From NCBI GenBank assembly GCA_964460695.1, contig CAYWSC010000001.1, positions 1 through 34,960 on the forward strand: a stretch of 34,960 nucleotides of DNA. Reading direction: 5' to 3'. Positions 1,589-25,958 of this stretch are shown here, in pieces. The DNA comes from Candidatus Hadarchaeota archaeon. Its GTDB lineage: Archaea > CAYQAE01 > CAYVLA01. Each line of letters begins with the position of its first letter. Position 1 is the first letter of the stretch. The position numbers were made by a program, and so were the translations under genes. The notes beneath the pieces are model-generated. The model had not been told where the DNA came from. It did no database searches and saw nothing but the letters and a program-made list of their open reading frames with translations.

Positions 1589-1611
1589 TGCCGGTTGATG
1601 GGGGGCGGGCT

Positions 1612-3392: not shown

Positions 3393-4622
3393 TTACATGC
3401 TCCGCCTCTTCGACGCGGCTCTCGTGAGTGCCACTTGGCGGTACATCCTCTTCTTCACCATGAGGCTGTAGAGGATGGAGCCGGAAAGGAGCGAGGTTCC
3501 GCTCACGGCTAGCCACTCGATGAGATAGACCCAGAGCAGTGCCCTATCCTTCAGCCTAAGTGCTTTCTCCTCCGCCTGTTCGTACTCGCTAATGATCTCG
3601 TCGTAGGCCGCCGCACATCCCTCATAGTCGCCTTGGATGTACTTGTTCTCGGCTGCTTTTCGCTTCTCGTCGATGAGCGCGACTTCGGCTGCCAGGGACC
3701 GCGTCTTCGCACCGAACATCTCTGCGAATTCTAGGACCGAGAAGACCATGGATCTAACCTCATCCGACCTTGTTATGAGGGACCTGGCTTTTCTCACGAG
3801 CTCGAGGTCCTTGGGGATCTCGTGGCGCGTGGTGGCAAATACTAGGTTGTATGCATAGTCCTGTAGGTATCTCCATCCGCTAGTCGTTTCTGCGGGGATG
3901 TTGTCCCATCCGTGGCCTATCTGGATGATGGCACCATTCCCAGGCGTAGAGAAGGTGACGCAATCGTAGTTTGTGCCTCTCCATCGGGCGAGAACCTTGC
4001 TCCCGGGTCTTGCCTGCATAGCTCCGTGATGGCCTATGTTCATTGGGTAGGTTTCGATACCCGGTAGGTCTAGCACGTCGCTTTCGGCAATGAGCTGGTA
4101 GTAGTTGTCCATGCCCCTTGGGATCTCTTGGCCGAAGGTGATGTCGGCAGGCACTATGTCGTAGAAGGGAGAGATCATCCAGAGGTCTATTCTGTTGCCG
4201 TTTCCAAACCAGTAGACGAACTCAACAAGGATCGCTCCGAGTCCCTCGTCCACTACGGCTTTCTTGAGATCTGTCGTGAAGCCGGGCGCAAGGACCTCGG
4301 GATTCAAATCCTCAAGGAGTATGCAGTCGAACTGGCTGACGAGCTGGTCATAAGTACGGGGCATGTACATCCTGACCTGCCTCCTCGCATCTCTTAGGGG
4401 CATGTCTTGGGTTGAACAAGGCACGATGTCGATGTCTATCCTCGGCTCGAGTCTATACCAGTCGGCAAAGAGATTGACGTTCGCGTGCAACTCCCCGGTG
4501 AAGAGGAGTCGGATCTTTCCCGTCTCTGGATCGTGCCGTGGCTCGGACGCGGTCACCAGGGGCAGTAGGACAGACACCATCATTACCAGGAGCAGTCCAG
4601 TTTGGGTTCTTGCTGGTCTCAC
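3393..4622 (-). CDS. Family F member F1 (subtype with F3): signal peptide, ThuA/GATase1-like ectodomain, helical stalk, conserved C-terminal TM helix and basic tail; function unknown
   Basis: 409-aa ORF with GTG start. Signal peptide ending LVTA/SE. Blocks DPETGKIRLLFTGE, RMYMPRTYDQL..DCILLED, LEFAEMFGAKT. C-terminus DRALLWVYLIEWLAVSGTSLLSGSILYSLMVKKRMYRQVALTR. Confidence 0.9.
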   Translation of the reverse strand: MRPARTQTGLLLVMMVSVLLPLVTASEPRHDPETGKIRLLFTGELHANVNLFADWYRLEPRIDIDIVPCSTQDMPLRDARRQVRMYMPRTYDQLVSQFDCILLEDLNPEVLAPGFTTDLKKAVVDEGLGAILVEFVYWFGNGNRIDLWMISPFYDIVPADITFGQEIPRGMDNYYQLIAESDVLDLPGIETYPMNIGHHGAMQARPGSKVLARWRGTNYDCVTFSTPGNGAIIQIGHGWDNIPAETTSGWRYLQDYAYNLVFATTRHEIPKDLELVRKARSLITRSDEVRSMVFSVLEFAEMFGAKTRSLAAEVALIDEKRKAAENKYIQGDYEGCAAAYDEIISEYEQAEEKALRLKDRALLWVYLIEWLAVSGTSLLSGSILYSLMVKKRMYRQVALTRAASKRRSM

Positions 4623-4760: not shown

Positions 4761-6002
4761 CTACAGCCTCCTTCCCTTGCCTCTCGTCACGTAGACCTGC
4801 CTGTACAGGCGTCTCCTGACCATGAGGCTGTACAAGATGGTTCCCGTTATGAGGCATGTGGCCGTGACCACGAGGTACTCTATGACGTATACCCAGAAAA
4901 GCGCCCTATCTCTGAGCTTGACCGACTCGTCGGCCAGATCCTGCGCCCTGCTGATTACCTCATCCATCATTTCGACGGCAGACTGGAAGTCCTGGGCAAT
5001 GTAGAGCCGCTCGGCCTCCCTTCGCTTCGCCTCATTGTCCCCGATCTCTTTGGTGAGGGTCCGGGTGTTAGCATTGAATTTTTCGACGAAGTCTATTGTG
5101 GCCATTAAGAGCCGCTTCTGATCCTCGTATTTGGCTATCTGGGTCTTGAAGATGTGTCTAAGCTTGTGTTCGGCGGGCACGCGCACCCCAGCGACGTAAA
5201 GCACCAGGTTGCTCGCGAAGTCTCCGTAGTACTCCCATTTCATGAAGTACACACCGCCCCCGGGTGTCCAATCCGCCCCCATTGCGAAGGTTCTGCCATT
5301 TCCCTGTAGCCATGTTGCAAGGAAAGGATTCTCCAGGTTTCCGGCCTTCAAGACGGCGAGAAGTTCAGCGCCGTCCTTTAGAATAAGGTCGTTGAACCTA
5401 TCGAACCCGTTCATGGGGGGGACAAGCGTTTCCCAGGGCAGGCTTTGGATGAACTCGTTATCCCACTTCTTTATCTCGACAACGCCGAAAGCAGGATTGA
5501 AGCTCTGGTAGATTCCCTCCACAGGCAGGATCTTCGCCACAGATGTACCTATCCAAGCGGGTCTACCTGGCTCGGCTCCAAAGCTCTCAACTCCGCCTAT
5601 CATGGCTAGGCCCAATCCATCCTTGACGACTGCATCCTCGAACCATTGGAAGTGCCTAGGCTCGAAGAGACGGACACCGGCATCGCTGAAGAGGATGACA
5701 TCGTTGTTTCGAGACATCTCCTCGTAGGATCGGGGCATGTATATCCTCATGAACTTCCTAATGAACTTCTCTTGATACCATGCCAGAGTCGCCGGGACCC
5801 CGCGAACAGAGATCAGGGGCTCTTGCTCGAGTAGTCGAGCAGGCGTGTCGGCGCCGACGTAGTCCCCTATGTAGAGGAGGCGGACCTTTCCAGTGGCAGG
5901 GTCTCTCCTCGGCTCCCTAGCCACCGCTGGAACAGACAGCAGTAGAACAGATAGCAGTAGAATTGCGACCACTATCAGTGAGAATTGTATCGACCGGCTC
6001 AT
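4761..6002 (-). CDS. Family F member F2 (subtype with the interrupted F6)
   Basis: The ORF extends to 6074, but ATG 6002 gives MSRSIQFSLIVVAILLLSVLLLSVPAVA/REPRRDPATGKVRLLYIGD, matching the paralog N-termini, and lies 28 nt below a TTTTTAAA box. Blocks RIYMPRSYEEM..DVILFSD, IDFVEKFNANT, DRALFWVYVIEYLVVTATCLITGTILYSLMVRRRLYRQVYVTR. Confidence 0.88.
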   Translation of the reverse strand: MSRSIQFSLIVVAILLLSVLLLSVPAVAREPRRDPATGKVRLLYIGDYVGADTPARLLEQEPLISVRGVPATLAWYQEKFIRKFMRIYMPRSYEEMSRNNDVILFSDAGVRLFEPRHFQWFEDAVVKDGLGLAMIGGVESFGAEPGRPAWIGTSVAKILPVEGIYQSFNPAFGVVEIKKWDNEFIQSLPWETLVPPMNGFDRFNDLILKDGAELLAVLKAGNLENPFLATWLQGNGRTFAMGADWTPGGGVYFMKWEYYGDFASNLVLYVAGVRVPAEHKLRHIFKTQIAKYEDQKRLLMATIDFVEKFNANTRTLTKEIGDNEAKRREAERLYIAQDFQSAVEMMDEVISRAQDLADESVKLRDRALFWVYVIEYLVVTATCLITGTILYSLMVRRRLYRQVYVTRGKGRRL

Positions 6003-6026
6003 TGCGCTCTTCCAAGCCGGTTTCGG

Positions 6027-6034
6027 TTTAAAAA
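6027..6034 (-). promoter_or_regulatory. TATA-like box (TTTTTAAA on the minus strand) about 28 nt upstream of ATG 6002
   Basis: Read directly from the sequence. It lies inside the upstream extension of the tracked ORF, which argues for the shorter start. Confidence 0.5.
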
Positions 6035-6249
6035 GTGTTCCCATCTCCGTCGCTCGTACGGGAGGATTGACCACCTACGATCATTCTATCCGGCGACAAG
6101 GCCTGTTAACGCGGGAGAGGTGTATCGGAAGGGTGTAGTAATACTCGCTGCCCCGCCGAACAAGCTCGTCGCTTCTACTCTCGTGGTTCGTACAGTGTAC
6201 AATCTAGATCTACAAAGTGGAAGTAGGGTGCACAATGCCAAGAGGAAAC

Positions 6250-6305: not shown

Positions 6306-8921
6306 ATGAAAGTGAGGGGCAGAGTATTACGTAGCATTCCGACCGGGATCGTGCTCGTAGCATTTCTGGTCGGACTGGGAGCGCTTGTACCAGCGGTTGC
6401 AGCGGAACTTCAGCCGCTCTGGACGACGAATATCGGTGGGAGAATAGAGGCCCAGCCGGTAGTGGCCGAGATAACGGGCGACGGGTATCCCGACGTCGTA
6501 GTGGGATGCCGGGAGACTGGCGCTGTCTCGGCGCTGGACGGCAAGACAGGTCAGATAGTCTGGGAGTTCAATGCTGGCTACCAGATAGTCAGGAATCTCG
6601 CAGTAGGCGACATAAACGCCGACGGCAAGACGGAGGTCGTTTTCAATACACGAAACGGGACCCTTTGGGTACTCGACAATGCCGGCAAACTGATATGGCG
6701 AAAGGATCTCAGCGGGGGTGGAGAGCTGTACTGCGCGCCCACCATAGCTGACATCAATGGCGATGGCAAACTAGAGGTTCTATTGGGCTCGAAGGGGCTG
6801 AAGAAGTTCTTCGCGTTTGATGCGGATGGTAATGAGCTTTGGGAGGCTCCTATCGGAGCTATCGGTGACAACACCGCCGCTGTTGCGGATATCGATGGCG
6901 ACGGTCAACCGGAAGTGGTGATGACTTCGGAGGACGAGGTCCTCTATGCCGTGTACGCGTGGGAAGCGGACGGTACGCCGCTGTGGGTCGCACAGGTGGA
7001 GCCTGGCGACAGACTGAACGCGGCCGTTTCGATAGCGGACGTGGATGCCGACGGCAAGCTGGACATTGTAGTCGGCGGTGCCTACGAGGGACGTGTCTAC
7101 TGCCTGAATGCCGCAGACGGAAGCAGGAAATGGATGTTCGACTCCGGCGAGCCTGTCAGAGTGAGCAAAGCAGTGGTCGGCGACCTGAACGGCGACGGCA
7201 AATTCGACACGGTCTTCACACTCCGCAGAACGGGGATAGTAATTGCTGTCGACTACAAGGGCCAGGAGCTTTGGCGCGCCAACTTGACTGGTGAGGTCCT
7301 CCACAACTTCCAGCCAGAGGTTCCTGCGCTGGCGGATGTAACGGGTGATGGAAATCCCGACGTGGTGATTGGCGGATCTGACGGGAAGATCTATGCGTTG
7401 AAGGGTAGCGACGGAAGCATCGCGTGGACGTACCAAGCGATCAATTCAGGAAGATTCGGAGGAAATCAGCCCGTCATCGTTGATCTGGACGGCGACAAAG
7501 TGGCTGAGCTTCTTTACGGTGACGAGAGGGGAAACGTGAGCCTGCTGTCGACGAGCGGTTTGTATGTGGATGACTACACATCACCGTGGCCATACAGAGG
7601 AAGGACATTCGACAATGTGAACTACCTGTCGCGGAGGATGCCTCAGTGGACTGTTAATGTTGGTGGTAGGATTGAGTCTCCGCCGGTTGCGGCTGATCTG
7701 GATGGTGATGGTGTCAGTGAGGTTGTCGTTGGTTCTAGGGAGACTGGGAAGCTGTATGCGATAGATCTCAGTGGTAATATTCTCTGGGAGTTTGATGCTG
7801 GGGCGCAGATTATCAGGAATCCTGCGATCGGTGATATCAATGGTGATGGTAAGCTGGAGATCGTCTTCAATGCTAGGAACGGGACTATGCGCGTGCTGGA
7901 TAATACTGGTAAGCTGCTTTGGTCTAAGGATCTGAGTGGCGGCGGCGAGTTGTACTGTGCACCTGCGATTGCGGATGTCAATGGTGACGGCAAGCTGGAG
8001 ATCCTGGTGGGCTCGAAGGGGCTGAAGAAGTTCTTCGCGTTTGATGCGGATGGTAATGAGCTTTGGGAGGCTCCTATCGGGTCTATTGGTGAGAATACTG
8101 CTGCTGTTGCGGATATTGACGGTGATGGTCAGTTGGATGTGGTGATGACTTCGGAGGACGAGGTTCTGTATGCCATCTATGCTTGGAAGGGTGATGGTAC
8201 GCCTCTCTGGGTGAGTCAGGTCGAGCAGGGTGATCGGTTTAATGCGGCGCCTTCTATAGCGGATATCGACGGCGACGGCTATCTGGACATCGTGGCCGGA
8301 GGAGCATACCAGGGACGCCTGTATTGTGTCGACGATACTGGTACTCGTAAGTGGGTCTTTGATACTGGTGAGCGTGTCAGGGTGAGTAAGGCTGCTTTGG
8401 GCGATTTGAACGGTGATGGCAAGCTTGAGTCGGTGTTTACGTTGAGGAGGACGGGTAAGGTCTATGCCGTTGATTATAAGGGTGATGTGGTGTGGACCGC
8501 CGATCTTACTGGTGAGGTTTTGCATGGGTTCTTGCCTGAGGATCCGATCATTGCGGATGCTACTGGTGACGGTAAGCCTGATGTGATTTTGGGTGGGTCT
8601 AATGGCAGGATTTATGTCCTTAATGGTGAGGATGGTAGTCTTGCTTGGACCTACCAGGCTGTGAATGCGGGGAGGTTTACGTTTAACCAGCCGGTGATCG
8701 TTGATCTGAATGGTGACCATGTGGCAGAGATGCTGTATGGTGACGAGCGGGGCAATGTTTCCTTGTTGGATACGCCGGGTCTCTACGTTGACTACACGAC
8801 TACTCCATGGCCGCTCAAGTACAGAACCATCCAGAACACAAACTTCTACGGGATACCAGAGACTATCTTCGCAGCGCTCTCACTGATATCCTTGGCTTAT
8901 CTGAGGAGACTGAAGAGGTAG
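6306..8921 (+). CDS. Exported double beta-propeller protein with FG-GAP/VCBS-type DxDGDG calcium loops and PQQ/BamB-like blades; C-terminal TM anchor
   Basis: ATG 6306 follows GGAGGAGGT. Signal peptide MKVRGRVLRSIPTGIVLVAFLVGLGALVPAVAA. Sixteen D-x-[DN]-[GA]-D-[GK] loops (e.g. ITGDGYPDVVVG, INGDGKLEVLLG, IDGDGQPEVVM) alternate with G-x-x-x-W strands. The C-terminus is FAALSLISLAYL followed by RRLKR. Confidence 0.9.
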   Translation: MKVRGRVLRSIPTGIVLVAFLVGLGALVPAVAAELQPLWTTNIGGRIEAQPVVAEITGDGYPDVVVGCRETGAVSALDGKTGQIVWEFNAGYQIVRNLAVGDINADGKTEVVFNTRNGTLWVLDNAGKLIWRKDLSGGGELYCAPTIADINGDGKLEVLLGSKGLKKFFAFDADGNELWEAPIGAIGDNTAAVADIDGDGQPEVVMTSEDEVLYAVYAWEADGTPLWVAQVEPGDRLNAAVSIADVDADGKLDIVVGGAYEGRVYCLNAADGSRKWMFDSGEPVRVSKAVVGDLNGDGKFDTVFTLRRTGIVIAVDYKGQELWRANLTGEVLHNFQPEVPALADVTGDGNPDVVIGGSDGKIYALKGSDGSIAWTYQAINSGRFGGNQPVIVDLDGDKVAELLYGDERGNVSLLSTSGLYVDDYTSPWPYRGRTFDNVNYLSRRMPQWTVNVGGRIESPPVAADLDGDGVSEVVVGSRETGKLYAIDLSGNILWEFDAGAQIIRNPAIGDINGDGKLEIVFNARNGTMRVLDNTGKLLWSKDLSGGGELYCAPAIADVNGDGKLEILVGSKGLKKFFAFDADGNELWEAPIGSIGENTAAVADIDGDGQLDVVMTSEDEVLYAIYAWKGDGTPLWVSQVEQGDRFNAAPSIADIDGDGYLDIVAGGAYQGRLYCVDDTGTRKWVFDTGERVRVSKAALGDLNGDGKLESVFTLRRTGKVYAVDYKGDVVWTADLTGEVLHGFLPEDPIIADATGDGKPDVILGGSNGRIYVLNGEDGSLAWTYQAVNAGRFTFNQPVIVDLNGDHVAEMLYGDERGNVSLLDTPGLYVDYTTTPWPLKYRTIQNTNFYGIPETIFAALSLISLAYLRRLKR
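6415..8862 (+). repeat. Intragenic tandem duplication: two 1224-nt (408-codon) units, about 6415-7638 and 7639-8862
   Basis: The protein halves are colinear along their whole length. Exact nucleotide identity occurs at 6784-6856 = 8008-8080 (73 nt) and 6915-6940 = 8139-8164 (26 nt), both at offset 1224. Elsewhere the two units differ mainly at third codon positions. Confidence 0.9.
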
Positions 8922-8971: not shown

Positions 8972-9859
8972 ATGAAGGTCGAACGGAGACTGATCGGAGT
9001 TCTGATCATCTCGCTCATAGTTGGAACTCTCATCTCTATGTACATGATCAGGGAGAAAATAGAGACGCCTGTGAGTCTGATCGACGAGTCCTACCCTCGT
9101 AGGGCCCTCTCGGGTACATCCGACCTTGATCAGGACAAGTATTCCGTGGCCTTCATCTGCCGCGAGGACCTGACTGAGGTGGCAGTGCACTTCGCGTCTC
9201 TAATCGAGGTCGAGCCCATCTTCAGTGGGTCAACGGGCAAGGTACAAGACCTGGAGAAGGCAGGGGAGCAGGTTGCGCAGATAAGCAACCAGCTTTCGTT
9301 GCTGAGGAAGGCGGGTTACGAACCGCAGGTCTTGGTAACCCAGGTCGAGATCGATGGAAGGAGGGAGACGGCTGTAGTCTACGATTTCAGCTCGCAGCTC
9401 AGCGCAGTGCTGCCTCCCGTCGGCTCTTCCCACTACCGGAGTATCTACGTCTTGCTAGTCAACAAGTCCAAGATGATCGACAGGCTATTCGAAGGGGTGC
9501 CCGACTTCTTCTTCATGAAGGACTTCTCGCTGCAGTCACTCGAGATTACGCTAAATGCGAACAAGACCGTCTATATGAAAGCAAAGGAGAAGGGGCAGCG
9601 TGAAGAGGGAACCCTGCCAATCTCCCAGGTCCCGGCCTACGGTACCGTGCTTTTTCGGAATCTGAAGCGAAACGACCGCGTCTCCATCGTATACAGGATA
9701 ATGTCCAGGCATGAACAGTACCCAGTGCTCTTCAGGAAGCAGCTTTCAAAGTCCAGATACGTCATCCACATGGTGAAGTTCCAGATAGACGGAGAGCTGG
9801 CCGAGGATAAGCTCCAGGTTCACGTAATGGACAATGGCGGGTATCAGGAGGAGACCTAA
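8972..9859 (+). CDS. Family X member X1: N-terminal TM anchor plus a domain of about 260 aa with no motif I recognise
   Basis: ATG 8972 is preceded by GGGAGGA. N-terminus MKVERRLIGVLIISLIVGTLI. Colinear with X2 (LPISQVPAYGTVLFRNLKRNDRVSIVY vs LPLSQAPSGVLTFRKVEKDDVVNVVF; IHMVKFQIDGE vs IAMIQMVKIYVDAK). The stop lies 1 nt before the Y1 start. Confidence 0.85.
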   Translation: MKVERRLIGVLIISLIVGTLISMYMIREKIETPVSLIDESYPRRALSGTSDLDQDKYSVAFICREDLTEVAVHFASLIEVEPIFSGSTGKVQDLEKAGEQVAQISNQLSLLRKAGYEPQVLVTQVEIDGRRETAVVYDFSSQLSAVLPPVGSSHYRSIYVLLVNKSKMIDRLFEGVPDFFFMKDFSLQSLEITLNANKTVYMKAKEKGQREEGTLPISQVPAYGTVLFRNLKRNDRVSIVYRIMSRHEQYPVLFRKQLSKSRYVIHMVKFQIDGELAEDKLQVHVMDNGGYQEET

Positions 9860-9860
9860 G

Positions 9861-10940
9861 GTGAAGAGGGTTTCTCTTGTCGTCGCATCGCTGGCCTTCA
9901 TTCTCCTTGGAAGCGTCACGGTGGGGGTGGCCGACGAGCCGGGGATAGTTCCAATCCTCTGCCAAAATGCGTATCATCCAATGACTGGTGAAGGGTCGAC
10001 CTTCGACAGATACGCAGCGGCACTTGCAGACATAATCAGGAACGACACTTCCCTCAACCTGGTCCCTGTGGTTGTCCACTCCTTGGGAGAGTTCGCTGAG
10101 TACCTCGGATATCCCCAGACCTACGCAGGTGTGCTATCGTTGTTCGAGGAGAAGATTCCAGAGCAGATGGACACCTCCAAGTTCTACTCTAGGACCCCCG
10201 AGGACCTGGAGAAGGCTATCTACGAGCTGTTCCGTTCAGGAGTCGGGCTCGTTGGGATGAATGACGTCGCCTTCTGCAGAAACCTATCCAAGACCGTGTT
10301 CCCTGTATTTGCCAACAGGTCCACGCCGGGGCAGATCGGGATAGTGGGCGGGAAACTCCAGATGGGACACTACTATCTCGTCGCGGATCCGACGCACCCC
10401 GTCGCGAATGGGCTCCCGGAGAAGGTGTTCTTTACGGACGTTATGATGAACTGGTGCTACACGACCGGAAAGGGAGGGGTGGAGGAGCCGCCAAAGCCTG
10501 CAGAGGGTGAAGTGACATTCGTTTACAAGACGAAGGTGAAGGGCAGTCCGTACAAGGATGGAATGGTCCCGGCTGTGATCGCGTATGAGAATGGGGGGCG
10601 CTCTGTGACCCTTCCTGCATTCGGCGTTACTGAGAGAGGCGGGCCAGATGATTATCGCGCAGTGATCAGCGACCCGAACTTCCAGACGCTCTTCAAGAAC
10701 TCTCTCAAGTGGGTTGCGGAGAGAGGCAAGGCTTCCTACCAGGGTCGGCTGGAGGAGTTCAAGTCCAGGATAGATGCGTCGCAGGAGGAGAAGCTTAGGC
10801 TGAGAGAGGAGGCAGACAAGTGGAAGAAGAAGGCTTCCCTAAGGAGGACAACGAAGCTGGCCGTGTTTACAATACTGGGCATTGTCGCAATCGTGGCTGT
10901 GTACAAGCTGACCTTCAAAGCAGAGGTCGAAGAAGAGTAG
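9861..10940 (+). CDS. Family Y member Y1: signal peptide/anchor, ThuA-like (class I GATase-like) domain, coiled coil, C-terminal hydrophobic helix, acidic end
   Basis: GTG 9861 is preferred over ATG 9834: AGGAGGA lies about 10 nt upstream, and both Y paralogs then start M-K-R. ThuA-like order of blocks: FRSGVGLVGMNDVAF, DPTHPVANGLPEKVFFTDVMMNW, PAVIAYENGGRSVTLPAFG, DPNFQTLFKNSLKWVAE. The tail is KKKASLRRTTK, then LAVFTILGIVAIVAVY, then KLTFKAEVEEE. Confidence 0.85.
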   Translation: MKRVSLVVASLAFILLGSVTVGVADEPGIVPILCQNAYHPMTGEGSTFDRYAAALADIIRNDTSLNLVPVVVHSLGEFAEYLGYPQTYAGVLSLFEEKIPEQMDTSKFYSRTPEDLEKAIYELFRSGVGLVGMNDVAFCRNLSKTVFPVFANRSTPGQIGIVGGKLQMGHYYLVADPTHPVANGLPEKVFFTDVMMNWCYTTGKGGVEEPPKPAEGEVTFVYKTKVKGSPYKDGMVPAVIAYENGGRSVTLPAFGVTERGGPDDYRAVISDPNFQTLFKNSLKWVAERGKASYQGRLEEFKSRIDASQEEKLRLREEADKWKKKASLRRTTKLAVFTILGIVAIVAVYKLTFKAEVEEE

Positions 10941-12133
10941 GGTTTCTACTGCTGGCGGGCGTCCTCCTGTCGCTGCTCGCGGTTACCTGTCAGGAACAGG
11001 TGTGGGCCAACTTCGGTCAGGACGACGGGCTCCCGTCCAGCGATGTCTACAGCATCGCAGCTCTAGAGAAAGATGTTTGGGCAGGGCTCGACGGGTCCGT
11101 GGCAAGATTTGTCGAATCGAATCAATCATGGGTCGCGCTGTTCCCACCTGGATTGGCGGCGAGGGTCACTAGCATTGCAATAGGCAAGGGAGAGGTGTGG
11201 TTCGGCACCTTCGGCAGCGGCATCTTCCGCTACCAAGATGGCGAATGGACCTCCTACACCAAGCGAGACGGATTGGCTGACGACAGGGTGGAGGACATCG
11301 CCATAGATGGCAGCTACCTATACGCTGCAACAGTTGCCGGGGCTAGCCGGCTGCCTCTTTCCGCTCAACCAGCTAGGTTTCAGACGGTAAGAAAAACTGA
11401 CGGGCTCCCTGACGAGGGGTTGTCGTCTGTATGCGTCCTGGGCGATATGGTGTGGTTCGGGAGCAGGGCGCACGGTGTCTTGGGGCTGGACGCTAGCAGC
11501 TTCTCGTACAAGAAACAGGTATCGATCGAGCAAGGCCTCTCAGACAGCAGGGTGCTCTCTCTAGCCTCAGACGGACAATACCTGTGGGTCGGAACGGGTG
11601 CCGGTGGAGTGTGTAGGTACGATCCAGCGGAGGAGTCCATCGTGGTCTACAACAAGTCAACAGGCCTTGCCGACAACTTGGTAGGATCGGTCGCAACGGA
11701 CTCCTCGGTATGGTGTGGAAGCTGGGGCTCGGGTGTCACAGCTCTTGACAAGGACGGAACGACGACGATTTACGATCGGTCGAAAGGGCTCGCAGACAAC
11801 GACGTTAGGGATATAGCGGTCGGTCAAAGAGAGGTGTGGTTTGCCACTGCAGGCGGAGTCTCACGCTTCACGGGCAAAGTTGCGGCAGGGAGAGGCGGCG
11901 TACCCGTAATATACGTCGTGGTTGGCGTCATCGTCATCGGGGCCATAGCCGTACCTTTGCTGCTCAGAGGGAGGTCGCATGCCGAGAAGACGGGGGTAAA
12001 GAAGAAGAAAATGCCCTACGAGCTTTGTGGTGGCGAACCCGCGGAGAATCTGTGCCCGTTCTGCAGGTACAATGTGGTCAGAGCCGGGAAGCATTACTGC
12101 TCGAGATACCGGGTCTCGATCCCCTTCGAGTAA
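10820..12133 (+). CDS. Single-pass membrane protein with an extracytoplasmic 7-blade Reg_prop-type (two-component-regulator propeller) domain and a Cys-rich cytoplasmic tail
   Basis: Seven repeats of the form GL[AP]D..V..IA.D...[VL]W.G[TS]..G[VI]..[FYL]. TM helix VPVIYVVVGVIVIGAIAVPLLL. The tail carries four Cys (C-x8-C-x2-C-x11-C). The start is uncertain: ATG 10820 is the only canonical start upstream of the signal sequence (RGRRRVGFLLLAGVLLSLLAV), and it overlaps Y1 by 121 nt. Confidence 0.75.
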   Translation: MEEEGFPKEDNEAGRVYNTGHCRNRGCVQADLQSRGRRRVGFLLLAGVLLSLLAVTCQEQVWANFGQDDGLPSSDVYSIAALEKDVWAGLDGSVARFVESNQSWVALFPPGLAARVTSIAIGKGEVWFGTFGSGIFRYQDGEWTSYTKRDGLADDRVEDIAIDGSYLYAATVAGASRLPLSAQPARFQTVRKTDGLPDEGLSSVCVLGDMVWFGSRAHGVLGLDASSFSYKKQVSIEQGLSDSRVLSLASDGQYLWVGTGAGGVCRYDPAEESIVVYNKSTGLADNLVGSVATDSSVWCGSWGSGVTALDKDGTTTIYDRSKGLADNDVRDIAVGQREVWFATAGGVSRFTGKVAAGRGGVPVIYVVVGVIVIGAIAVPLLLRGRSHAEKTGVKKKKMPYELCGGEPAENLCPFCRYNVVRAGKHYCSRYRVSIPFE

Positions 12134-12315
12134 GCCCGTAGATAGGGACGGGACGGCGAGCCGTCAGGCAGAGCTGCCAGGGGTTTTGGAGTTGCAGGAA
12201 GAGCCAAATACGGCGACCACTCACCAGTCACCTCCCATGTGGTTACCCCAATGGTCTTGCAGCAAGCATCGGGCAGCTGTCGCGGTGAGGATGTTTCGCG
12301 GGATGCTGGATGCAA

Positions 12316-12324
12316 CTTTTATGT
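12316..12324 (+). promoter_or_regulatory. TATA-like box (CTTTTATGT) about 28 nt upstream of ATG 12348
   Basis: Same spacing as the boxes for F1, F2 and 1612. Supports 12348 rather than 12027 as the F3 start. Confidence 0.45.
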
Positions 12325-12347
12325 CCGACGCTTTCCACGTGCTGGCC

Positions 12348-13565
12348 ATGAGAGGGAAGCTCTTGGCCGTGCTGCTCTTGATCGGCTTCTCGATGGCTTG
12401 CGGCATGTGCAAGAGCGATCCGGCAACGGGCAAGGTTCGGGTGATGTTCGTTGGGGAGGTAAGCTCCTACAACAGGATGGTTCTGGACTGGCTAATGGCT
12501 GAGCCGAGGATCCAGCTAACCAGAACTGTTCCGTGCGACATCCAGATCGTCGGGTATAAAGACGCCGTGCGGTTTGCGAGAATATATCTCCCGCGCAGCT
12601 ACAAGGGCCTCTTCGAGGACAACGACGTGGCGATCTTCCACGACTTCCACCCCAAGGTGCTTCCCAGGGGATCCATAGATTGGTTCGGACGGGCGGTGGA
12701 GAACGGCTTCGGCCTATGCCTCATAGAGTTCGCCTATAGGGTCGCCGGGTACGCCGGAATGGATGTGTGGCCAACGCTCCAGATATACAAGCTCTTCCCG
12801 GGAGAATTTGTAATAAATCAGATAGAGGCGATTTACGGACGGCAGTACTATAGGGTTGTCAAGGAGGGACCCCTCCTAGGTCTCCCAGGAATCGAGAAGT
12901 ACAGGATGAACTGGGGGTGGCACGGTGACCTTAAGCCGAGGCCGGGAACAGTAGTCTGGGCCGTGTGGAAAGGCAGGGGGACACCTGCAATTGTGACTGG
13001 TACGTATGGCCAGGGGAAGGTCCTTCAGATGGATTCTGGCTACGACACCCTGCCGCAGGAAACCAAACGAGCATGGCCCTATGTGGCTGACTTCGTTTAC
13101 AATCACGTGACCTTCGTGTCTGGGCTCCCGTTTCCGGACGATATCGAACTCACTCACACCACTCGGAGAAAATTCATACGGTATAGAGATGAAAAGGCCA
13201 TGGCGAATATGGTCCTGGAGTTCATCGAGAAGTTTGGTGCCAATCCGAGGCCTTTCGAAGTGGAGATGGCGGACATGGCGTCTGAATACTCGAAGGCGGA
13301 GCGGCTGTATATCGACGGGGATGTCGAAGAGGCAAACGCGGCGATCGACGATCTCCTGGACCGCTTCGTATCGCTGAGCAATGAGATGACGAAGGCCAAG
13401 GACAGGGCAATGCTGTGGATATACGTCTCTGAATGGCTTGCTGTCAGCGGGACATCCATGGTATGCGGGTTTGTCCTCTGGTCGCTGATGGTGAGAAAAA
13501 GGCTGTACAGGGAGGTCGAGATAACGAGGGCCTCCGGAGTGGTCAAGAAGGAATGGGGCAAGTGA
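12348..13565 (+). CDS. Family F member F3 (subtype with F1)
   Basis: Start chosen at MRGKLLAVLLLIGFSMACGMCKSDPATGKVRVMFVGE, colinear with F1. Blocks RIYLPRSYKGL..DVAIFHD, LPGIEKYRMNWGWHG, LEFIEKFGANP, DRAMLWIYVSEWLAVSGTSMVCGFVLWSLMVRKRLYREVEITR. Confidence 0.88.
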   Translation: MRGKLLAVLLLIGFSMACGMCKSDPATGKVRVMFVGEVSSYNRMVLDWLMAEPRIQLTRTVPCDIQIVGYKDAVRFARIYLPRSYKGLFEDNDVAIFHDFHPKVLPRGSIDWFGRAVENGFGLCLIEFAYRVAGYAGMDVWPTLQIYKLFPGEFVINQIEAIYGRQYYRVVKEGPLLGLPGIEKYRMNWGWHGDLKPRPGTVVWAVWKGRGTPAIVTGTYGQGKVLQMDSGYDTLPQETKRAWPYVADFVYNHVTFVSGLPFPDDIELTHTTRRKFIRYRDEKAMANMVLEFIEKFGANPRPFEVEMADMASEYSKAERLYIDGDVEEANAAIDDLLDRFVSLSNEMTKAKDRAMLWIYVSEWLAVSGTSMVCGFVLWSLMVRKRLYREVEITRASGVVKKEWGK

Positions 13566-13598
13566 GATGGAGGAGCAAGCTGTAAGGCCGGAAGCCTT

Positions 13599-14828
13599 CT
13601 ATTGGTTTTCGTGGGTGAGTTTTGTGACTTCCACCTCTCTGTAGAGGCGTCTTCTCACCATGAGGGTCCAGAGTATGAATCCCGAGATGAACAGCGCTGA
13701 TGTTGTTATGAGCCACTCGATGATGTATATCCAGAGTAGCGCCCTATCTTTAACCTTCTGGGCGACGGCCTCTGCATTTGAGAACTCTTCAAGGCCCTTC
13801 TTCAGATCGCTGTAGGCCCCGGAAAAGTCCTGCTGGTCGACGTACTTCTTGGTCCCCTCGTTGTAGAGGTCTTCAAGATTGAGGATCTCGTCCTGAATCT
13901 TCTCGGTGTTCGCCCCGAACTTGTCTACAAAGTCCCTCAGGGATATGAGGGCGGAGAGCCTGGTCACGAACTCTGTTATGACCCCTTTGAGGCTGTGGAA
14001 GATGTCAACAGTGTCCCTGGTTATCAGGCCGCGGTGCGTTATCCAGAGGATCATGTTCATCAGAATGTCGGGGGAGTACTGGTTGCCGCTCCCCCCGAAG
14101 CTGGGGTAGCCGAGCCAGCCGTTTCCGAGGAAGTCCCCTGTAGTTATTGATCTTCCCTCTCCGTACTCCCAGGCTACTATGTAGCCGACCCTTCCCTTTC
14201 CCGGGAATCCTGTCTGCCAGGCAAGGGTCTCGGCGGCCTCCCTAGCTACCACAAGGCCGTGGGCCGAGTAGGCAGAGACCTTCTCAACGTCGTAGGGGAC
14301 AAACGGCGTGAGGATCGGGTACCTGGCTTGTTTGTTTATGAAGATGTTGAATGAGTTTGTCATCCTCCACTGCTGGCTTAGAACGGCGTCGACATCGTTG
14401 GGGAAGGCCTGCTGGGCAAGTGAGGCTGCCCAGGCGGTGTTGATATCGGTGACAATGCTGAAAAGGCTCCCATCGTTGATTCCTCCAGCCCCCTCCCTTA
14501 TCGCGTCGCGAATCCACCTATCCTGCGTATTGGTCAGGAGGTAGTATTCTGGGGAGGTGAGAAGTATTGCATCGTATTTCTTCATCTCTTCGTACGTCCT
14601 GGGGTAGTAGAGGCGGATCTGCTTCTTCATCGCATCCACTGTTTCAATACCCCTGGTTATCACCGGTTGATAGGTGATCAAAGGTTCGTTGTCGAAGAAC
14701 ATCCTCATGACCTGCATTATCGCGGCGTGGCCGACTATCAGCGCGTTTATCTTCTCCGCGCCGCACGGTCCAGCGACTATCAGGAGAATGATTAGAGATG
14801 GACCGAGGAGTCTTGAAGGAGGCCGCAT
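13599..14828 (-). CDS. Family F member F4 (subtype with F5)
   Basis: 409-aa ORF with signal peptide MRPPSRLLGPSLIILLIVAGPCGA. Blocks RLYYPRTYEEMKKYDAILLTSP, VAWEYGEGRSITTGD, RDFVDKFGANT, DRALLWIYIIEWLITTSALFISGFILWTLMVRRRLYREVEVTK. Confidence 0.9.
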   Translation of the reverse strand: MRPPSRLLGPSLIILLIVAGPCGAEKINALIVGHAAIMQVMRMFFDNEPLITYQPVITRGIETVDAMKKQIRLYYPRTYEEMKKYDAILLTSPEYYLLTNTQDRWIRDAIREGAGGINDGSLFSIVTDINTAWAASLAQQAFPNDVDAVLSQQWRMTNSFNIFINKQARYPILTPFVPYDVEKVSAYSAHGLVVAREAAETLAWQTGFPGKGRVGYIVAWEYGEGRSITTGDFLGNGWLGYPSFGGSGNQYSPDILMNMILWITHRGLITRDTVDIFHSLKGVITEFVTRLSALISLRDFVDKFGANTEKIQDEILNLEDLYNEGTKKYVDQQDFSGAYSDLKKGLEEFSNAEAVAQKVKDRALLWIYIIEWLITTSALFISGFILWTLMVRRRLYREVEVTKLTHENQ

Positions 14829-14852
14829 GGCGCGGGGAAGGGGAAGGCAAAA

Positions 14853-14864
14853 CTAATATAAAAG
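14853..14864. promoter_or_regulatory. Shared, near-palindromic TATA element (CTAATATAAAAG / CTTTTATATTAG) in the 74-nt divergent F4 | X2 spacer
   Basis: Best TATA match in the window (TTTTATATTA on the minus strand). It is centred about 30 nt from the F4 ATG (14828) and about 45 nt from the X2 TTG (14903). X2 additionally has GGAGGG at 14890-14895. Confidence 0.55.
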
Positions 14865-14902
14865 ATTTGTGTGCTACCCGCAGCCGGCCGGAGGGTTGGT
14901 GG

Positions 14903-15754
14903 TTGGTCGGGAGGAGGGTTTTGGGTCTCGCAGCCGTGTCTATGATTCTTTCCTCTCTCATTGTTGCTTCAATAGCGAGGGAGAGAGTGGCTGAGCCCGT
15001 GGAGGTTCTGAAGAACGAGTTTCCAGAGGTCTCTCAGCCTGGCAGCGGCGCATTCTCATTTTCAGTCGTGTTCCGGAGGAGCGTTGAAGAGGCGCAATTG
15101 AGGTTCTATGCCCTCTACTCAGCCGTGTATCCGGCGGTCGAGCTTGTAGACCCGGACAGGGTGTTCAACGAGACCAGCTCGCCCAAGGATATGATCATGA
15201 ATGTGAAGGCCTTCAAGTGGTTTTCCGAGAAGGCGTCAGCCATAGGTCTTCTACCCGAGGACGTTGAGGCCAATGTGAAGATTGGCGGCGAGGAGTATAA
15301 GCTTCTGCTGCATGACTATTCTAGAGTTCTAGAGGCGGTGTGTGGGAACGAGACCACAGCCAGCGTTTCACCAGTTTTTGGATGCGTGATGAACAGGTCG
15401 GGCGCTGGCTACTATCTTGTCGGCGGCCCGGGGTTCTTCCGGGCTGCCAATGCAACACTGCTTGGGCTAGCAATCTCGGCGGGAGGGGCGGAGCACCGAT
15501 ATGTACCGGACGACCAGGTCAAGGCTGGGTCGGGGGAGCTCCCGCTCTCACAGGCCCCGAGCGGCGTTTTGACGTTTAGAAAGGTGGAGAAGGACGATGT
15601 TGTGAATGTTGTTTTCTCCGTACGGGGTGGTGCATTGCCCCGGCCTATGAAGACGCCGATCGCGATGATCCAGATGGTAAAGATCTACGTGGACGCCAAA
15701 ATCATGGGAGAGCCGATACTGAACATCATCAAGTCAGGAGGGTGGCGGGCGTGA
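14903..15754 (+). CDS. Family X member X2
   Basis: TTG 14903 is chosen because GGAGGG lies 7 nt upstream and the N-terminus (M)VGRRVLGLAAVSMILSSLIVASI parallels X1 MKVERRLIGVLIISLIVGTLI. The tracked ORF start at 14798 would overlap the F4 start and the TATA box. The stop TGA overlaps the Y2 GTG (GTGA). Confidence 0.8.
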   Translation: MVGRRVLGLAAVSMILSSLIVASIARERVAEPVEVLKNEFPEVSQPGSGAFSFSVVFRRSVEEAQLRFYALYSAVYPAVELVDPDRVFNETSSPKDMIMNVKAFKWFSEKASAIGLLPEDVEANVKIGGEEYKLLLHDYSRVLEAVCGNETTASVSPVFGCVMNRSGAGYYLVGGPGFFRAANATLLGLAISAGGAEHRYVPDDQVKAGSGELPLSQAPSGVLTFRKVEKDDVVNVVFSVRGGALPRPMKTPIAMIQMVKIYVDAKIMGEPILNIIKSGGWRA

Positions 15755-16770
15755 AGCGCACAGCAAAGAAGAGGTGGCTTGCAGGAACCGTCAAACTACT
15801 CTTTGCGCTTCTTCTGGCTTTATCGACTCTGGTAGCCCAGTGCGGGGGAAGTCAGGACGTCAACGTCACCCCCATGATCTATCTCTACGCCCCTGGAGAC
15901 CGCACCTTTGCCGGCATGCTTGCCTCCTTGATTGGGAACGACACTAGGATCAGGCAGAGCGGGGCAAAAGTTGAGTTGCTGGACACCCAGAGCGAGGTGA
16001 TTTGGGCGACAGCCCTCCCAAACACGGCGTGCCTCGTTATATACTCGGACAATGCCAGGCAGCTAGAGGGGCTTGAGACACCTCTTCTCGCCTTCTTCAA
16101 GAACGGCGGTGGGCTGCTTGGCATCAGGGAGATCTGTTTCAAGCACAGAGGTTTGGAGCGGCTGGTCAGCGTCGTATTCCCGACCTTCGCCAACGGATCC
16201 ATCAAGCAGACGGGGACGGCCAAGAGAAGAGTTAGAACCTATGTGGCGGTCGAGCCCGGTGAGATTGGAGAGGAGCTTCCAGATAGATTTGACCTTGTGA
16301 GCATGGGTACCTACTATTGTGCTGATCAGGATGGAAACTATTTGCGGATTCCGAGCAACTACCAGGTTGCGTATATGGATGAGGAGATAGGCGCGCCTCT
16401 AGTTGTCGTTGCGGAGAGTGATCGTGGCGGACGATCGGTAGGGATGCCGGGAATCTGGGTCGTGAAGGCATCCAGAGTGGACATATACTACGGCAATCTG
16501 GTTTCCGATGAGAATTTCGTAAGGCTCTTCACCAACTCGGTCGTCTGGGCGATGGAGTCCTCTTGGTTCAGAGACAAGGGGCTGAATATGCACAGGAGGA
16601 TGGCGCAGATGATAGAGAAGGAGGAGACGCTGGCAAAGGACCTGGAGAGGATTGAGCGCACCAAGAAGGGCCGTAGAACCATCGTCCTGGCCGTGCTTTG
16701 GGTCATAGGCCTTGCGGCGTGCGCTGTTATTGCAAGGAACACGATCCTTGTGCCCCTCGAAGAGGAGTGA
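15751..16770 (+). CDS. Family Y member Y2 (ThuA-like, coiled coil, C-terminal helix, acidic end)
   Basis: GTG 15751 lies about 9 nt after CAGGAGGG. GTG 15742 is the alternative. Blocks FKNGGGLLGIREICF, VFPTFANGS, VVAESDRGGRSVGMPG, DENFVRLFTNSVVWAME. The tail is TKKGRRT, then IVLAVLWVIGLAACAVIA, then RNTILVPLEEE. Confidence 0.85.
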   Translation: MKRTAKKRWLAGTVKLLFALLLALSTLVAQCGGSQDVNVTPMIYLYAPGDRTFAGMLASLIGNDTRIRQSGAKVELLDTQSEVIWATALPNTACLVIYSDNARQLEGLETPLLAFFKNGGGLLGIREICFKHRGLERLVSVVFPTFANGSIKQTGTAKRRVRTYVAVEPGEIGEELPDRFDLVSMGTYYCADQDGNYLRIPSNYQVAYMDEEIGAPLVVVAESDRGGRSVGMPGIWVVKASRVDIYYGNLVSDENFVRLFTNSVVWAMESSWFRDKGLNMHRRMAQMIEKEETLAKDLERIERTKKGRRTIVLAVLWVIGLAACAVIARNTILVPLEEE

Positions 16771-16854
16771 GGCGGCATTGCGCCTATGGCAGTGTGGACA
16801 AACGACACGAGAATCCGTTGGGACAAATGTCGGGTGCTCGGGAGGTGTGATGTT

Positions 16855-17319
16855 ATGGCACCAAAGGCCTTGGTTGCATACTACTCGCGATCCGGCGGAA
16901 CCCAACTCATGGCAGAGGAGATAGCCGAGGGACTCCGTTCTCGCGGCATTGATGTCGATGTTAGGCGCATTGAAGATTGCAGGGTTAGGGACCTCAGGGC
17001 TGCTGATGTACTTGTGCTGGGCTCTCCGACTTATTTCAGCAATATGTCCTGGCAGGTGAAGCGCCTGGTAGACGAGTCGATAGAGCTATACACTTCAGGC
17101 GATCTCTCAGGAAAAGTGTTTGGCTGCTTCACCTCTGCAGGGACGAGGAGGGATGCCGAGGAATGTATAAAGATGCTCGAGCTAGCCTTCGGCTTCCACC
17201 ATCGAATGAGGTCGGTCCCGGGAATCTACGCCACGTCGGGGGAGTCCAGGGAGCAGATTCGAGAACGATGTAGGGAGTATGCTGGTCTGATAGCCAAGGC
17301 CCTATTAGAAGGGGGATGA
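16855..17319 (+). CDS. Flavodoxin-like fold protein (flavodoxin / WrbA-type FMN protein), cytoplasmic
   Basis: ATG 16855 follows GGAGGTG. N-terminal FMN-phosphate-loop-like ALVAYYSRSGGTQLMAEEIA, and VLVLGSPTYFSNMSWQVKRLVDES, typical of the flavodoxin-like fold. No signal peptide or TM segment. Confidence 0.75.
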   Translation: MAPKALVAYYSRSGGTQLMAEEIAEGLRSRGIDVDVRRIEDCRVRDLRAADVLVLGSPTYFSNMSWQVKRLVDESIELYTSGDLSGKVFGCFTSAGTRRDAEECIKMLELAFGFHHRMRSVPGIYATSGESREQIRERCREYAGLIAKALLEGG

Positions 17320-17323
17320 GAGG

Positions 17324-18574
17324 GTGCAAGGAGGGACTCTCCGAGAGAGGGCAGTGCTTGCAGCATTGTGGCTTCTCGTCCCACTGGCACTCTCAGCGCA
17401 GGCCTGTTCTGCGCAGAAGATCAGGGTCTTGCTTACGGGCCAGATAGACCAGTCGGTAAACCCCCTGCAGGTTTGGTTCAAGGCGGAGCCCCTGGTCGAC
17501 TATCTTGCCGTGCCTTCAAGGGATCTTAGAGGAATCCTAGGCGGGGACAAGGCGATGAGCAGGTTCATCAGGATATACTTTCCGAGGAGCTACCAGGACC
17601 TCAGCAGCTACGAATTCATCCTCCTCAACTCCCCCGTAACGAGTCTCTTCAGCAAGACGCAGCTCGACTGGATGTACAGGGCCATTGTTGACGGATCAGG
17701 GGGGCTGAACACGGCAAGCATCATGAGCCAGTTTCCAGACGTCTACGGTGGTTGGGTCGAGTCTGTTCTTCAAGAGGCGTTTCCAAACGATGCGCCGCTT
17801 GTGGTCCAGAAGTTCGGGGGCGCGACCAGCAAGACGAAAGCCTTTCACATCGTCGTCAACCGCGACTTTCCCGTCCCAGTCCTCACGCCCTTCATACCCC
17901 TCGGCGTGGAGCGTTTTCTCGGCGAGGATTCGCGGTTCATCATACTCAGGCCGGGGGCATCCGCGCTGGCGTACCAGGTCGGCAACTTCCCGGGGTACAG
18001 GGACGTTCCGTACATCGCCGTCTGGGAGTATGGAAAGGGAAGAACCATGACAACGGGCGATGCCTTCGGGCATACCTTCTGGTCCTCTTACCGCGGAACC
18101 AGCAGCGACAACATCTATGCCCTTGACATTCTCATGAACCTCATATTCTACGCTACACACAGAAAAGTCGCGGAGGATGTTCAAGCCTTTCACATGGCTA
18201 GGAGCTACTTCATGGAGTTCAGGACTAGGATGGCAGTTCTCCTAGGGCTGAAGGACTTCGTCGAGAAGTTCGGGGCCAGGACTCGAAGCGTGGACGAGAT
18301 GGTGGCCAGACTTGAGGAATTGAACAGGGAGGCGGGAGACCGGTACGTCCAGCAGGACTTCGAAGGGTGTGAACAAGTCATGAAGGAAGCGTTCGACCTG
18401 TTCAAGGAGACTGAGGTAGCGACGGTGAAGCTCAAGCAGAGGGCGCTGATGTGGGTATATCTCGTTGAATGGCTCGCAACTACATCCGTTCTGCTTTTCT
18501 CGGGTTTCCTTCTCTGGTCGCTCATGGTGAGGAGGCAGCTGTACAGGGGGGTCGGGTACACTAGGGCTGGGTGA
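17324..18574 (+). CDS. Family F member F5 (subtype with F4)
   Basis: GTG start 4 nt after the flavodoxin stop. Signal peptide ...LLVPLALSAQA. Blocks RIYFPRSYQDLSSYEFILLNSP, IAVWEYGKGRTMTTGD, KDFVEKFGART, QRALMWVYLVEWLATTSVLLFSGFLLWSLMVRRQLYRGVGYTR. Confidence 0.9.
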   Translation: MQGGTLRERAVLAALWLLVPLALSAQACSAQKIRVLLTGQIDQSVNPLQVWFKAEPLVDYLAVPSRDLRGILGGDKAMSRFIRIYFPRSYQDLSSYEFILLNSPVTSLFSKTQLDWMYRAIVDGSGGLNTASIMSQFPDVYGGWVESVLQEAFPNDAPLVVQKFGGATSKTKAFHIVVNRDFPVPVLTPFIPLGVERFLGEDSRFIILRPGASALAYQVGNFPGYRDVPYIAVWEYGKGRTMTTGDAFGHTFWSSYRGTSSDNIYALDILMNLIFYATHRKVAEDVQAFHMARSYFMEFRTRMAVLLGLKDFVEKFGARTRSVDEMVARLEELNREAGDRYVQQDFEGCEQVMKEAFDLFKETEVATVKLKQRALMWVYLVEWLATTSVLLFSGFLLWSLMVRRQLYRGVGYTRAG

Positions 18575-25841: not shown

Positions 25842-25863
25842 GCCTTCGAATCCGAGGGACTGC

Positions 25864-25871
25864 TTATATTT
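25864..25871 (-). promoter_or_regulatory. TATA-like box (AAATATAA on the minus strand) about 26 nt upstream of ATG 25841
   Basis: Lies within the non-homologous upstream extension of tracked ORF 25293..25952. Supports the 25841 start. Confidence 0.45.
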
Positions 25872-25958
25872 CTTGGTCCCGGGAGGGGAGGGGCGAGGCA
25901 GTGAGGATGAAACGTATTTCAACCCGACCTCGGGGCCGAAAATCAGGGGCATGTCTTC

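Follow-up and report, generated by a model that had tools for sequence, protein, structure and literature searches.

The contig CAYWSC010000001.1 of a Candidatus Hadarchaeota archaeon (assembly GCA_964460695.1) carries, at two places, a pair of adjacent genes, here termed X and Y, that encode predicted surface proteins and are followed further downstream by a gene of a third type, F. This arrangement raises the question of whether X, Y, and F belong together. We analyzed the window, i.e., the entire contig of this public metagenome-assembled genome (MAG; 34,960 bases), together with related loci and proteins from other assemblies (L and P numbers, respectively). The original prediction was a recurrent X-Y(-F) cassette; the X-Y pair was borne out as such, but F was not found to be part of it. 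We propose, with moderate confidence, that X and Y constitute a two-subunit, membrane-anchored, extracellular, and N-glycosylated surface module that may bind or scaffold glycans.

Conservation of the X-Y gene pair

The two junctions between X and Y in the window were as originally predicted. The stop codon of X1 and the start codon of Y1 are separated by a single nucleotide, TAA (9857-9859)-G-GTG (9861-9863), with GGAGGAG upstream, and X2 and Y2 overlap in the sequence GTGA (15751-15754), with GGAGGGTGG upstream; a GGAGG-type motif lies 8-15 nt upstream at each junction. The predicted recurrence of the genes was also confirmed by blastp: the identities were 23% over 303 aa between X1 and X2 (E = 4.5e-19), 26% over 320 aa between Y1 and Y2 (E = 1.3e-18), and 26% over 415 aa between F1 and F2 (E = 5e-36). 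These similarities are far beyond chance, and the three gene pairs are clear but old paralogues.

Adjacency of X and Y was kept elsewhere, in lineages sharing only 20-30% identity. Five lineages with no more than 30% identity to one another have X beside Y, in the order X to Y in four and Y to X in one. The gap between the two genes was 7 nt or less, or the genes overlapped, in both pairs of the window, in L001-L008, L014, L015, and L018, and in the minus-strand pair of L020. In L014, L015, and L018, Y comes directly after X, the two genes being 4 nt apart or overlapping by 4 nt, at 20-30% identity in both proteins. Among the X1-type pairs, whose X1 orthologues share 52-87% identity, the order FG-GAP, X, Y, Reg_prop was observed in six independent contigs. 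The divergence of X and that of Y run parallel across lineages. In one lineage, the two proteins are joined: P0043 is a single 639-aa Y-X fusion (Y, residues 1-344; X, residues 358-629). In L020, a 54% relative of P0043, Y and X are separate genes that lie 33 nt apart in the same frame. The region 2961-7933 of L020 contains an X-Y pair on the minus strand and the series Y, X, X on the plus strand, i.e., three X and two Y genes within 5 kb; it is flanked by DegT, GFO_IDH_MocA, two Amidohydro_2 genes, and a GlmU-like gene, and no F gene was present within 12 kb.

The CAYVLA01 MAG contains both an X1-type and an X2-type pair; the pair was thus duplicated as a unit before the species split. Several X loci are flanked by archaeal marker genes (Cdc6, RadA, exosome, L15e, and L37ae). 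The named source MAGs of the X-Y loci are labeled Theionarchaea, Thermococci, or Hadarchaeota, and the module is specific to this group of uncultured archaea. A literature search for surface proteins of Theionarchaea returned nothing relevant. X-Y is thus a conserved unit, a recurrent, co-inherited, and translationally coupled pair.

Alternatively, X, Y, and F may be independent surface glycoproteins or envelope proteins that accumulated in a hotspot of tandem and segmental duplication and do not form an X-Y complex. The window indeed shows active duplication and decay, as it contains six F genes, three X genes, a pair of 42%-identical open reading frames (ORFs; o8 and o1588), and two decayed genes; furthermore, the gene order varies by lineage (X to Y, Y to X, F to X, or X alone). 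We nevertheless consider this explanation unlikely: plain duplication would not keep one specific partner adjacent over such divergence, whereas junctions of 7 nt or less persist at 20-30% identity in five lineages, the two proteins diverged in parallel, and a fusion exists. Judged from gene order and sequence, X and Y probably form a cell-surface complex.

X represents a protein family without known relatives in the databases searched

X had been described as a domain without a recognizable motif, and it indeed belongs to no known family in Pfam, NCBIfam, or the Protein Data Bank (PDB). No Pfam or NCBIfam match was obtained for X, none of 63 divergent family members had a credible Pfam match, and a PDB sequence search with the X profile gave nothing meaningful (best E = 0.035). 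The AF2 model of X1 (predicted local distance difference test score (pLDDT), 84.5; predicted template modeling score (pTM), 0.80) consists of a helix at residues 2-30 followed by strands that make up a β-rich ectodomain. A Foldseek comparison of this model with the PDB yielded nothing below E = 1e-3 (best E = 1.6e-3, TM-score ≤0.25).

HMMER searches of 1.84 billion representative proteins identified X homologues in 102 clusters at E <1e-3, including 68 at E <1e-10, when clusters were counted at 50% identity. The members are 260-300 aa long in nearly all clusters. A word-indexed search with the 63-member X alignment returned 8 proteins; the family size was therefore taken from the representative search. 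Weak matches to the giant repeat proteins P0116, P0118, and P0120 were rejected as noise from Ig-like repeats (Big_3, Calx-beta, and fn3). In L017, the X domain of P0035 (4245-5777) is fused to a C-terminal glycerophosphodiester phosphodiesterase (GDPD) domain, with no Y gene nearby. Overall, X is a small, real, and previously undescribed family.

Distribution of N-glycosylation sequons

The numbers of N-X-S/T sequons in X, Y, and F were compared with those expected from amino acid composition. In the 63 X members, 180 sequons were observed against 69 expected, and every member has some (two in X1 and four in X2). In Y, 19 were observed against 9.6 expected, and the site at N152 of Y1 is present in seven of nine members. 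In contrast, F contained no sequon against 13.7 expected in 12 members, which are mostly 23-39% identical to F2, and 6 against 33 expected over 32 unique sequences (from the window and L001, L004, L009, and L015-L019). As controls, cytoplasmic proteins encoded in the window were at the expected level, and its other anchored proteins were enriched two to three times, as X and Y were. The enrichment supports an extracellular location of X and Y, and the depletion in F suggests selection against its N-glycosylation.

F is an expanded family and not a fixed member of the cassette

F had been regarded as the third gene of the cassette. This was not supported, since F is an expanded family with six copies on both strands of the contig. 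F is also absent from the X-Y loci L014, L018, and L020, and in two lineages, L009-L012 (1-nt and 5-nt gaps) and L019, a full F gene lies directly upstream of X in the place of Y. Around X loci, about one gene in eight encodes F.

The F profile matched the PDB entries 2gk3, 3soz, and 3rht (E = 1e-16 to 2e-12). In Pfam, only the F copy at 4761-6074 of the window passed the threshold of PF07090 (GATase1_like; 41.1 bits against 27 bits), and F1, Fm, and F2 had no PF07090 match individually; many orthologous F genes pass. To the GATase1-like domain, F adds a signal peptide, a helical region of ~110 aa, and a C-terminal transmembrane (TM) segment with a basic motif. The literature search on the function of PF07090/DUF1355 found nothing.

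The TM and juxtamembrane segment of F, ALxWVYxxEWLxVxGxxxxxGxxLWxLMVRRRLYREVxxTR (13440-13565, 13599-13720, 18450-18574, and other F C-termini), is conserved far above the ectodomain; Glu and Trp are invariant at the outer edge of the helix, and 12-17 residues follow the helix. This pattern hints at a fixed membrane partner or a processing step for the segment.

Such conservation, together with the multicopy nature of F, may alternatively point to a role of Y and F, with X as an accessory, as envelope stalks or anchors, whose task would be to keep an outer layer in place or delimit a pseudo-periplasmic space and not to bind substrates. SlaB-type S-layer anchors consist of a signal peptide, globular domains, a coiled coil, and a C-terminal helix, and the arrangement of signal peptide, head, long helix, and C-terminal TM segment in Y and F may be comparable. 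The sequon richness of X and Y would also be in line with archaeal envelope glycoproteins, and some of the loci lie among housekeeping genes (L019) or near nucleotide-sugar and DegT genes (the window, L015, and L020). On the other hand, no similarity to a known S-layer or anchor protein was detected in Pfam, NCBIfam, or the PDB. In addition, the stalk of Y is short (~40 residues), and dozens of divergent heads are hard to fit to a purely structural role. We therefore regard this possibility as rather improbable.

Y adopts a predicted ThuA-like fold without a catalytic triad

The ThuA-like domain assigned to Y by the original prediction was borne out at the fold level. The AF2 model of Y1 (pLDDT, 75.7), which ends in a single continuous helix (residues 293-358), matched 1t0b (E = 1.3e-10), 4jqs (5.4e-9), and 4e5v (1.2e-8) in Foldseek with a probability of 1.00 and target TM-scores of 0.53-0.65; 2gk3 and IFT52 GIFT-domain structures were also among the matches. 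At the sequence level, Y1 scored 17.8 bits (E = 0.004) against PF06283 (ThuA), below the gathering score of 33.4 bits, and Y2 had no match; the orthologues P0015 and P0018 carry precomputed PF06283 matches. A PDB sequence search with the Y profile gave nothing meaningful. The Y ectodomain carries a G-x-G-L-x-G motif after the central strand.

Profile-profile alignment of Y with F by hhalign gave E = 9e-5 and a probability of 59% over 207 columns, and the Y profile against the single F2 sequence received no support (probability 1%). Y is thus a divergent sister of F, the two being distantly homologous.

As this is a fold of the class I glutamine amidotransferase superfamily, Y and F could be active extracellular enzymes of the amidotransferase/amidase or sugar-processing ThuA type, with X as a substrate-binding or regulatory subunit. 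Pairs of cytoplasmic ThuA and GFO_IDH_MocA genes are indeed present nearby in L001, and sugar-metabolism genes recur. However, neither the alignments of divergent Y proteins nor those of F proteins contain an invariant Cys or His; the Cys-His-Glu triad is therefore absent in both families, and Y is not an amidotransferase. Moreover, the sequence matches are structural-genomics proteins without known function, and the closest characterized non-cytoplasmic relative of the fold is a non-catalytic carbohydrate-binding module (CBM) (PMC7229062). An enzymatic function is thus very unlikely.

Membrane topology of X, Y, and F

Every Y and F protein has a basic n-region at its N-terminus, with a hydrophobic, signal-like segment after it; in X, a basic stretch precedes a helix of 20 residues that lacks a cleavage-type motif. 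Y and F are accordingly predicted to be type I membrane proteins, and X a type II membrane protein. Because of their N-terminal signal sequences, Y and F are not tail-anchored in the strict sense, as they had been labeled; the topology of the fusion protein and the sequons also place the head of Y outside.

The fusion protein P0043 is informative in this respect. Its Y helix is followed by MPARQRPAPEARADRRE and then by the X anchor, and as the two hydrophobic helices are joined by a linker of only 17 residues, five of which are Arg, both ectodomains are expected to be outside. Likewise, the Y tail of L020, which begins with IPARQRRAAAEQ, is Arg-rich after the helix. These features fit an ordinary out-to-in Y helix lying beside an in-to-out X anchor.

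An unusual charge pattern had been noted in Y, with a basic cluster before the helix and an acidic tail after it. Both are present in Y1 and Y2. Of 10 divergent Y proteins, 9 have the basic cluster, but conservation does not extend to the acidic tail. The net charge of the tail ranges from -3 (Y1) to +3 (L009) across the family, and the tails RLTFKAEER, RFVVIRD, RYIIPRFSSSREPPA, and ATFVKTQRMK have net charges of +1 to +3. The anomaly of Y with regard to the positive-inside rule is thus real only in part, and it has no link to the F tails. We also considered charge complementarity between the basic N-terminus of X and an acidic Y tail; this was rejected, as the tails range from -3 to +3 while X N-termini are at about +2.

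The explanation offered earlier, namely a different mode of insertion of the Y helix or its electrostatic pairing with the basic F tails, appealed to the conserved basic cluster, the terminal EEE of Y1 and Y2, and the basic F tails, but it is hardly credible given that the acidic tail is not conserved, that L014, L018, and L020 have X-Y pairs without F, that the Arg-rich segment after the Y helix in P0043 and L020 leads into the X anchor as in a standard out-to-in helix, and that the conserved sequons argue for an outside location of the Y head.

A proposed surface module and its weighing

Here, we propose a model of the X-Y module. X and Y would be made together from translationally coupled ORFs. 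X would enter the membrane as a signal-anchor with its N-terminus inside and display its β-rich ectodomain, and Y would be exported via its signal peptide, with a triad-less ThuA-like domain of the class I glutamine amidotransferase fold on a helical stalk with a stop-transfer helix at its end. In the membrane, this helix and the X anchor would lie side by side as an antiparallel pair. F proteins, as distant relatives of Y with the same build in a much-expanded family, can substitute for Y beside X and otherwise cluster nearby. The module may bind or scaffold surface glycans in a non-enzymatic manner, and the X1-type pair may work with the FG-GAP propeller and the sensor-like Reg_prop propeller of its operon.

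Glycan binding or scaffolding is a guess, and we put it forward tentatively. It is drawn from Agd3, an exopolysaccharide deacetylase of Aspergillus fumigatus, whose N-terminal GATase1/ThuA-like domain lacks the triad and constitutes the carbohydrate-binding module CBM87, and from the fact that 3RHT and 4JQS, the nearest structures of CBM87, are shared with F and Y (PMC7229062). Genes for glycoside hydrolases, an esterase, and sugar oxidoreductases are found repeatedly around X loci; they include GH10/39, GH9, GH129-like, AXE1, GHL10, and BNR_4, as well as GFO_IDH_MocA, DegT, and AP_endonuc_2, and the FG-GAP propellers show carrageenase- and rhamnogalacturonan-lyase-type Pfam matches.

Several observations weigh against the proposed module. 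X occurs alone in two lineages, L016 and L017 (as the GDPD fusion), with F at a distance of 1.5-3 kb in both; L017 also has an FG-GAP gene at that distance. The Y gene of L009-L012 is found 1.6 kb from X and on the opposite strand. There is only one fusion protein, and it comes from a 3.7-kb MAG contig. The charge of the X N-terminus does not co-vary with that of the Y tail, and the model does not yet account for the conserved basic cluster at the predicted outer side of the Y helix or for the near-complete lack of sequons in F. Finally, the neighborhoods of L014, L019, and L020 are of a housekeeping or nucleotide-sugar biosynthesis type and not of glycan breakdown, and the glycan theme as a whole, judged from the gene neighborhoods, is weak.

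A broader interpretation, which we regard as doubtful, is that X-Y, with F interchangeable for Y, represents an undescribed archaeal surface display system. In such a system, a split TM hairpin would carry non-catalytic heads of the GATase1/ThuA fold and a new β-rich domain on stalks and would capture or sense polysaccharides in sediment archaea, akin to SusD-like or cellulosome-scaffold proteins, and the sequon-free F heads and the glycosylated X and Y heads would have distinct roles. Nothing found here yet contradicts established biology.

From the analysis, X emerges as a new protein family and X-Y as a conserved two-gene module of uncultured archaea that are poorly known, and a structural hypothesis is provided in which a split or fused TM hairpin joins two ectodomains. 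If the heads bind glycans, the module would offer a first account of substrate retention or sensing at the surface of these archaea, which have loci rich in glycoside hydrolases, and a function outside the cytoplasm for the large uncharacterized GATase1_like/ThuA-like superfamily. The sharp difference in sequon content between F on the one hand and X and Y on the other provides a clean signal with which to study how selection acts on glycosylation in archaea. Should none of these proposals hold, the locus would be an ordinary cluster of paralogous envelope proteins.

Gene organization of the window

Table 1 Genes of the X-Y pairs, F paralogues, and associated genes in the window.
Gene	Position	Strand	Features
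FG-GAP/PQQ-like double β-propeller	6306..8921	+	FG-GAP_3 3e-71 (Pfam); C-terminal IPE, TM, and RRLKR anchor
X1	8972..9859	+	Predicted type II (signal-anchor) protein; N-terminal helix, β-rich ectodomain of ~260 aa; Shine-Dalgarno-like GGGAGGAT upstream
Y1	9861..10940	+	Predicted signal peptide, triad-less ThuA-like (class I GATase-fold) ectodomain, long helix, C-terminal TM helix
Reg_prop β-propeller membrane protein	10820..12133	+	Reg_prop 3.3e-7 (Pfam); predicted cytoplasmic 4-Cys tail; start uncertain
F1	12348..13565	+	Predicted type I; signal peptide, GATase1-like ectodomain, helical region, highly conserved C-terminal TM, then RKRLYREV; F hidden Markov model (HMM) E 1e-183
Fm	13599..14828	-	F paralogue between both cassettes; 40% identity to F2, E 3e-101
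X2	14903..15754	+	Divergent X1 paralogue; orthologues P0123/P0124 and L014 (39%)
Y2	15751..16770	+	Divergent Y1 paralogue; start overlaps X2 stop; L014 orthologue 42% identical, likewise after X
Flavodoxin/FMN-reductase-like protein, probably cytoplasmic	16855..17319	+	FMN_red 3.9e-11, Flavodoxin_1 1.7e-10; alternative ATG 16786
F2	17324..18574	+	F paralogue; start 4 nt past flavodoxin stop
Extra F paralogue	3393..4622	-	38% identity to F1, E 3e-91
Extra F paralogue	4761..6074	-	PF07090 E 2e-10; true start probably ATG near 6002
X3, third X copy	~23688..24511	+	Frameshift near 24040-24075; X HMM positions 3-115 in one frame (E 1e-16), 127-274 in another (E 2e-25)
F3, F copy beside X3	24558..25952	-	In-frame TGA 25293-25295; collinear F HMM matches on either side

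As shown in Table 1, the gene inserted between Y and F differs between the copies, as originally noted: a Reg_prop propeller in copy 1 and a flavodoxin-type protein in copy 2. The product of Y1 is also called in the public record, with 359 aa. F1 starts 214 nt past the stop codon of the propeller gene and is therefore probably uncoupled from it. X3 and F3 represent either a decaying X/F pair or assembly errors; the frameshift of X3 lies near a run of five G.

The conserved unit of the X1-type pairs is FG-GAP, X, Y, and Reg_prop. The FG-GAP gene, 50 nt upstream of X1 in the window, is the conserved upstream neighbor in L001-L008, and Reg_prop orthologues follow Y in the same loci. In the X2-type pair, the inserted gene is not conserved, and the flavodoxin has no counterpart in L014.

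The only in-frame starts of the Reg_prop protein are GTG 10820, which has its own GGAGG upstream, and GTG 11000; GTG 10820 is the only canonical start that keeps the signal sequence, and it overlaps Y1 by 121 nt. A start at GTG 10937, overlapping the Y1 stop as GTGA, was rejected, as the sequence reads GTA there. Further features of the protein are a second TM segment and a conserved tail, RPYExCGGxPxxxLCPFCxYN...C-S-K/R-Y (window, L001, L004, and L008), which resembles a 4-Cys zinc ribbon; a role as a transmembrane sensor is possible. In the hybrid two-component systems of Bacteroides, glycans are sensed by Reg_prop propellers.

The FG-GAP/PQQ-like propellers (window, 8850-8921; L001, ~9870-9937; L004, L008, L014, and L017) end in (G/P/A)(I/V)PE, a helix of ~17 residues, and a basic cluster, e.g., GIPETIFAALSLISLAYLRRLKR. 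These ends resemble the three parts of exosortase/archaeosortase sorting signals (PGF-CTERM, PEP-CTERM, and related types), and the end of o1588 (GIPLT...RRRGKGRY) is similar. NCBIfam CTERM models (E up to 0.1) did not match Y, F, or the FG-GAP protein, and no sortase gene was seen in the window.

Some further genes of the window lacked matches in Pfam and the PDB. The products of o8 (8-1420) and o1588 (1588-3369) are paralogues (E = 7e-124) without a Pfam or PDB match, both with a C-terminal TM segment and a basic anchor, and both very rich in sequons; o1588, the complete copy, has an N-terminal signal-like segment and 10 sequons against 2.7 expected. Two ORFs between the cassette region and a DegT aminotransferase gene, 18649-20916 (minus strand, 755 aa) and 22395-23516 (plus strand, 373 aa), also lacked Pfam and PDB sequence matches and had no N-terminal hydrophobic segment. 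Single-protein PDB sequence searches with three neighboring proteins of this kind gave nothing meaningful.

Comparison with known systems

X and its pairing with Y or F are not described in the libraries or literature searched, and Y and F fall within known but uncharacterized superfamilies. A class I GATase-like domain outside the membrane, between an N-terminal signal or anchor and a C-terminal helix, is known from GldG/ABC_transp_aux (PF09822) and DUF4350-type proteins. X, Y, and F differ from these in that they had no match to PF09822 or DUF4350 (PF14258) at E up to 0.1, and no ABC transporter or MoxR/DUF58 genes are adjacent, the ABC genes of the window being 10 kb away. GldG/DUF4350-type proteins are not known to have an X-like partner.

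The Y ectodomain model superposes on ThuA-like proteins (PF06283; 1t0b, 4jqs, and 4e5v) with Foldseek E of 1e-10 to 1e-8 and a target TM-score of ~0.6. Known ThuA proteins, however, are soluble and ~220-280 aa long, whereas in Y the domain is accompanied by a signal peptide, a helical stalk, and a C-terminal membrane helix, and X is its partner. The F profile similarly matches GATase1_like/DUF1355 proteins (PF07090; 2gk3, 3soz, and 3rht), none of which has a known function; unlike these, F has the additional signal peptide, helical region, and TM segment with the basic motif, occurs in many copies, and is nearly devoid of sequons.

The CBM87 domain of Agd3 is likewise an extracellular, triad-less GATase1/ThuA-like fold, which serves to bind a polysaccharide, and a similar carbohydrate-binding role has been suggested for PelA. 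3RHT and 4JQS also match F and Y, respectively; the resemblance of CBM87 to F and Y is one of shared structural neighbors only. The domain of Agd3 is fused to a CE18 catalytic domain (PMC7229062), whereas Y and F would stand alone as heads on membrane stalks.

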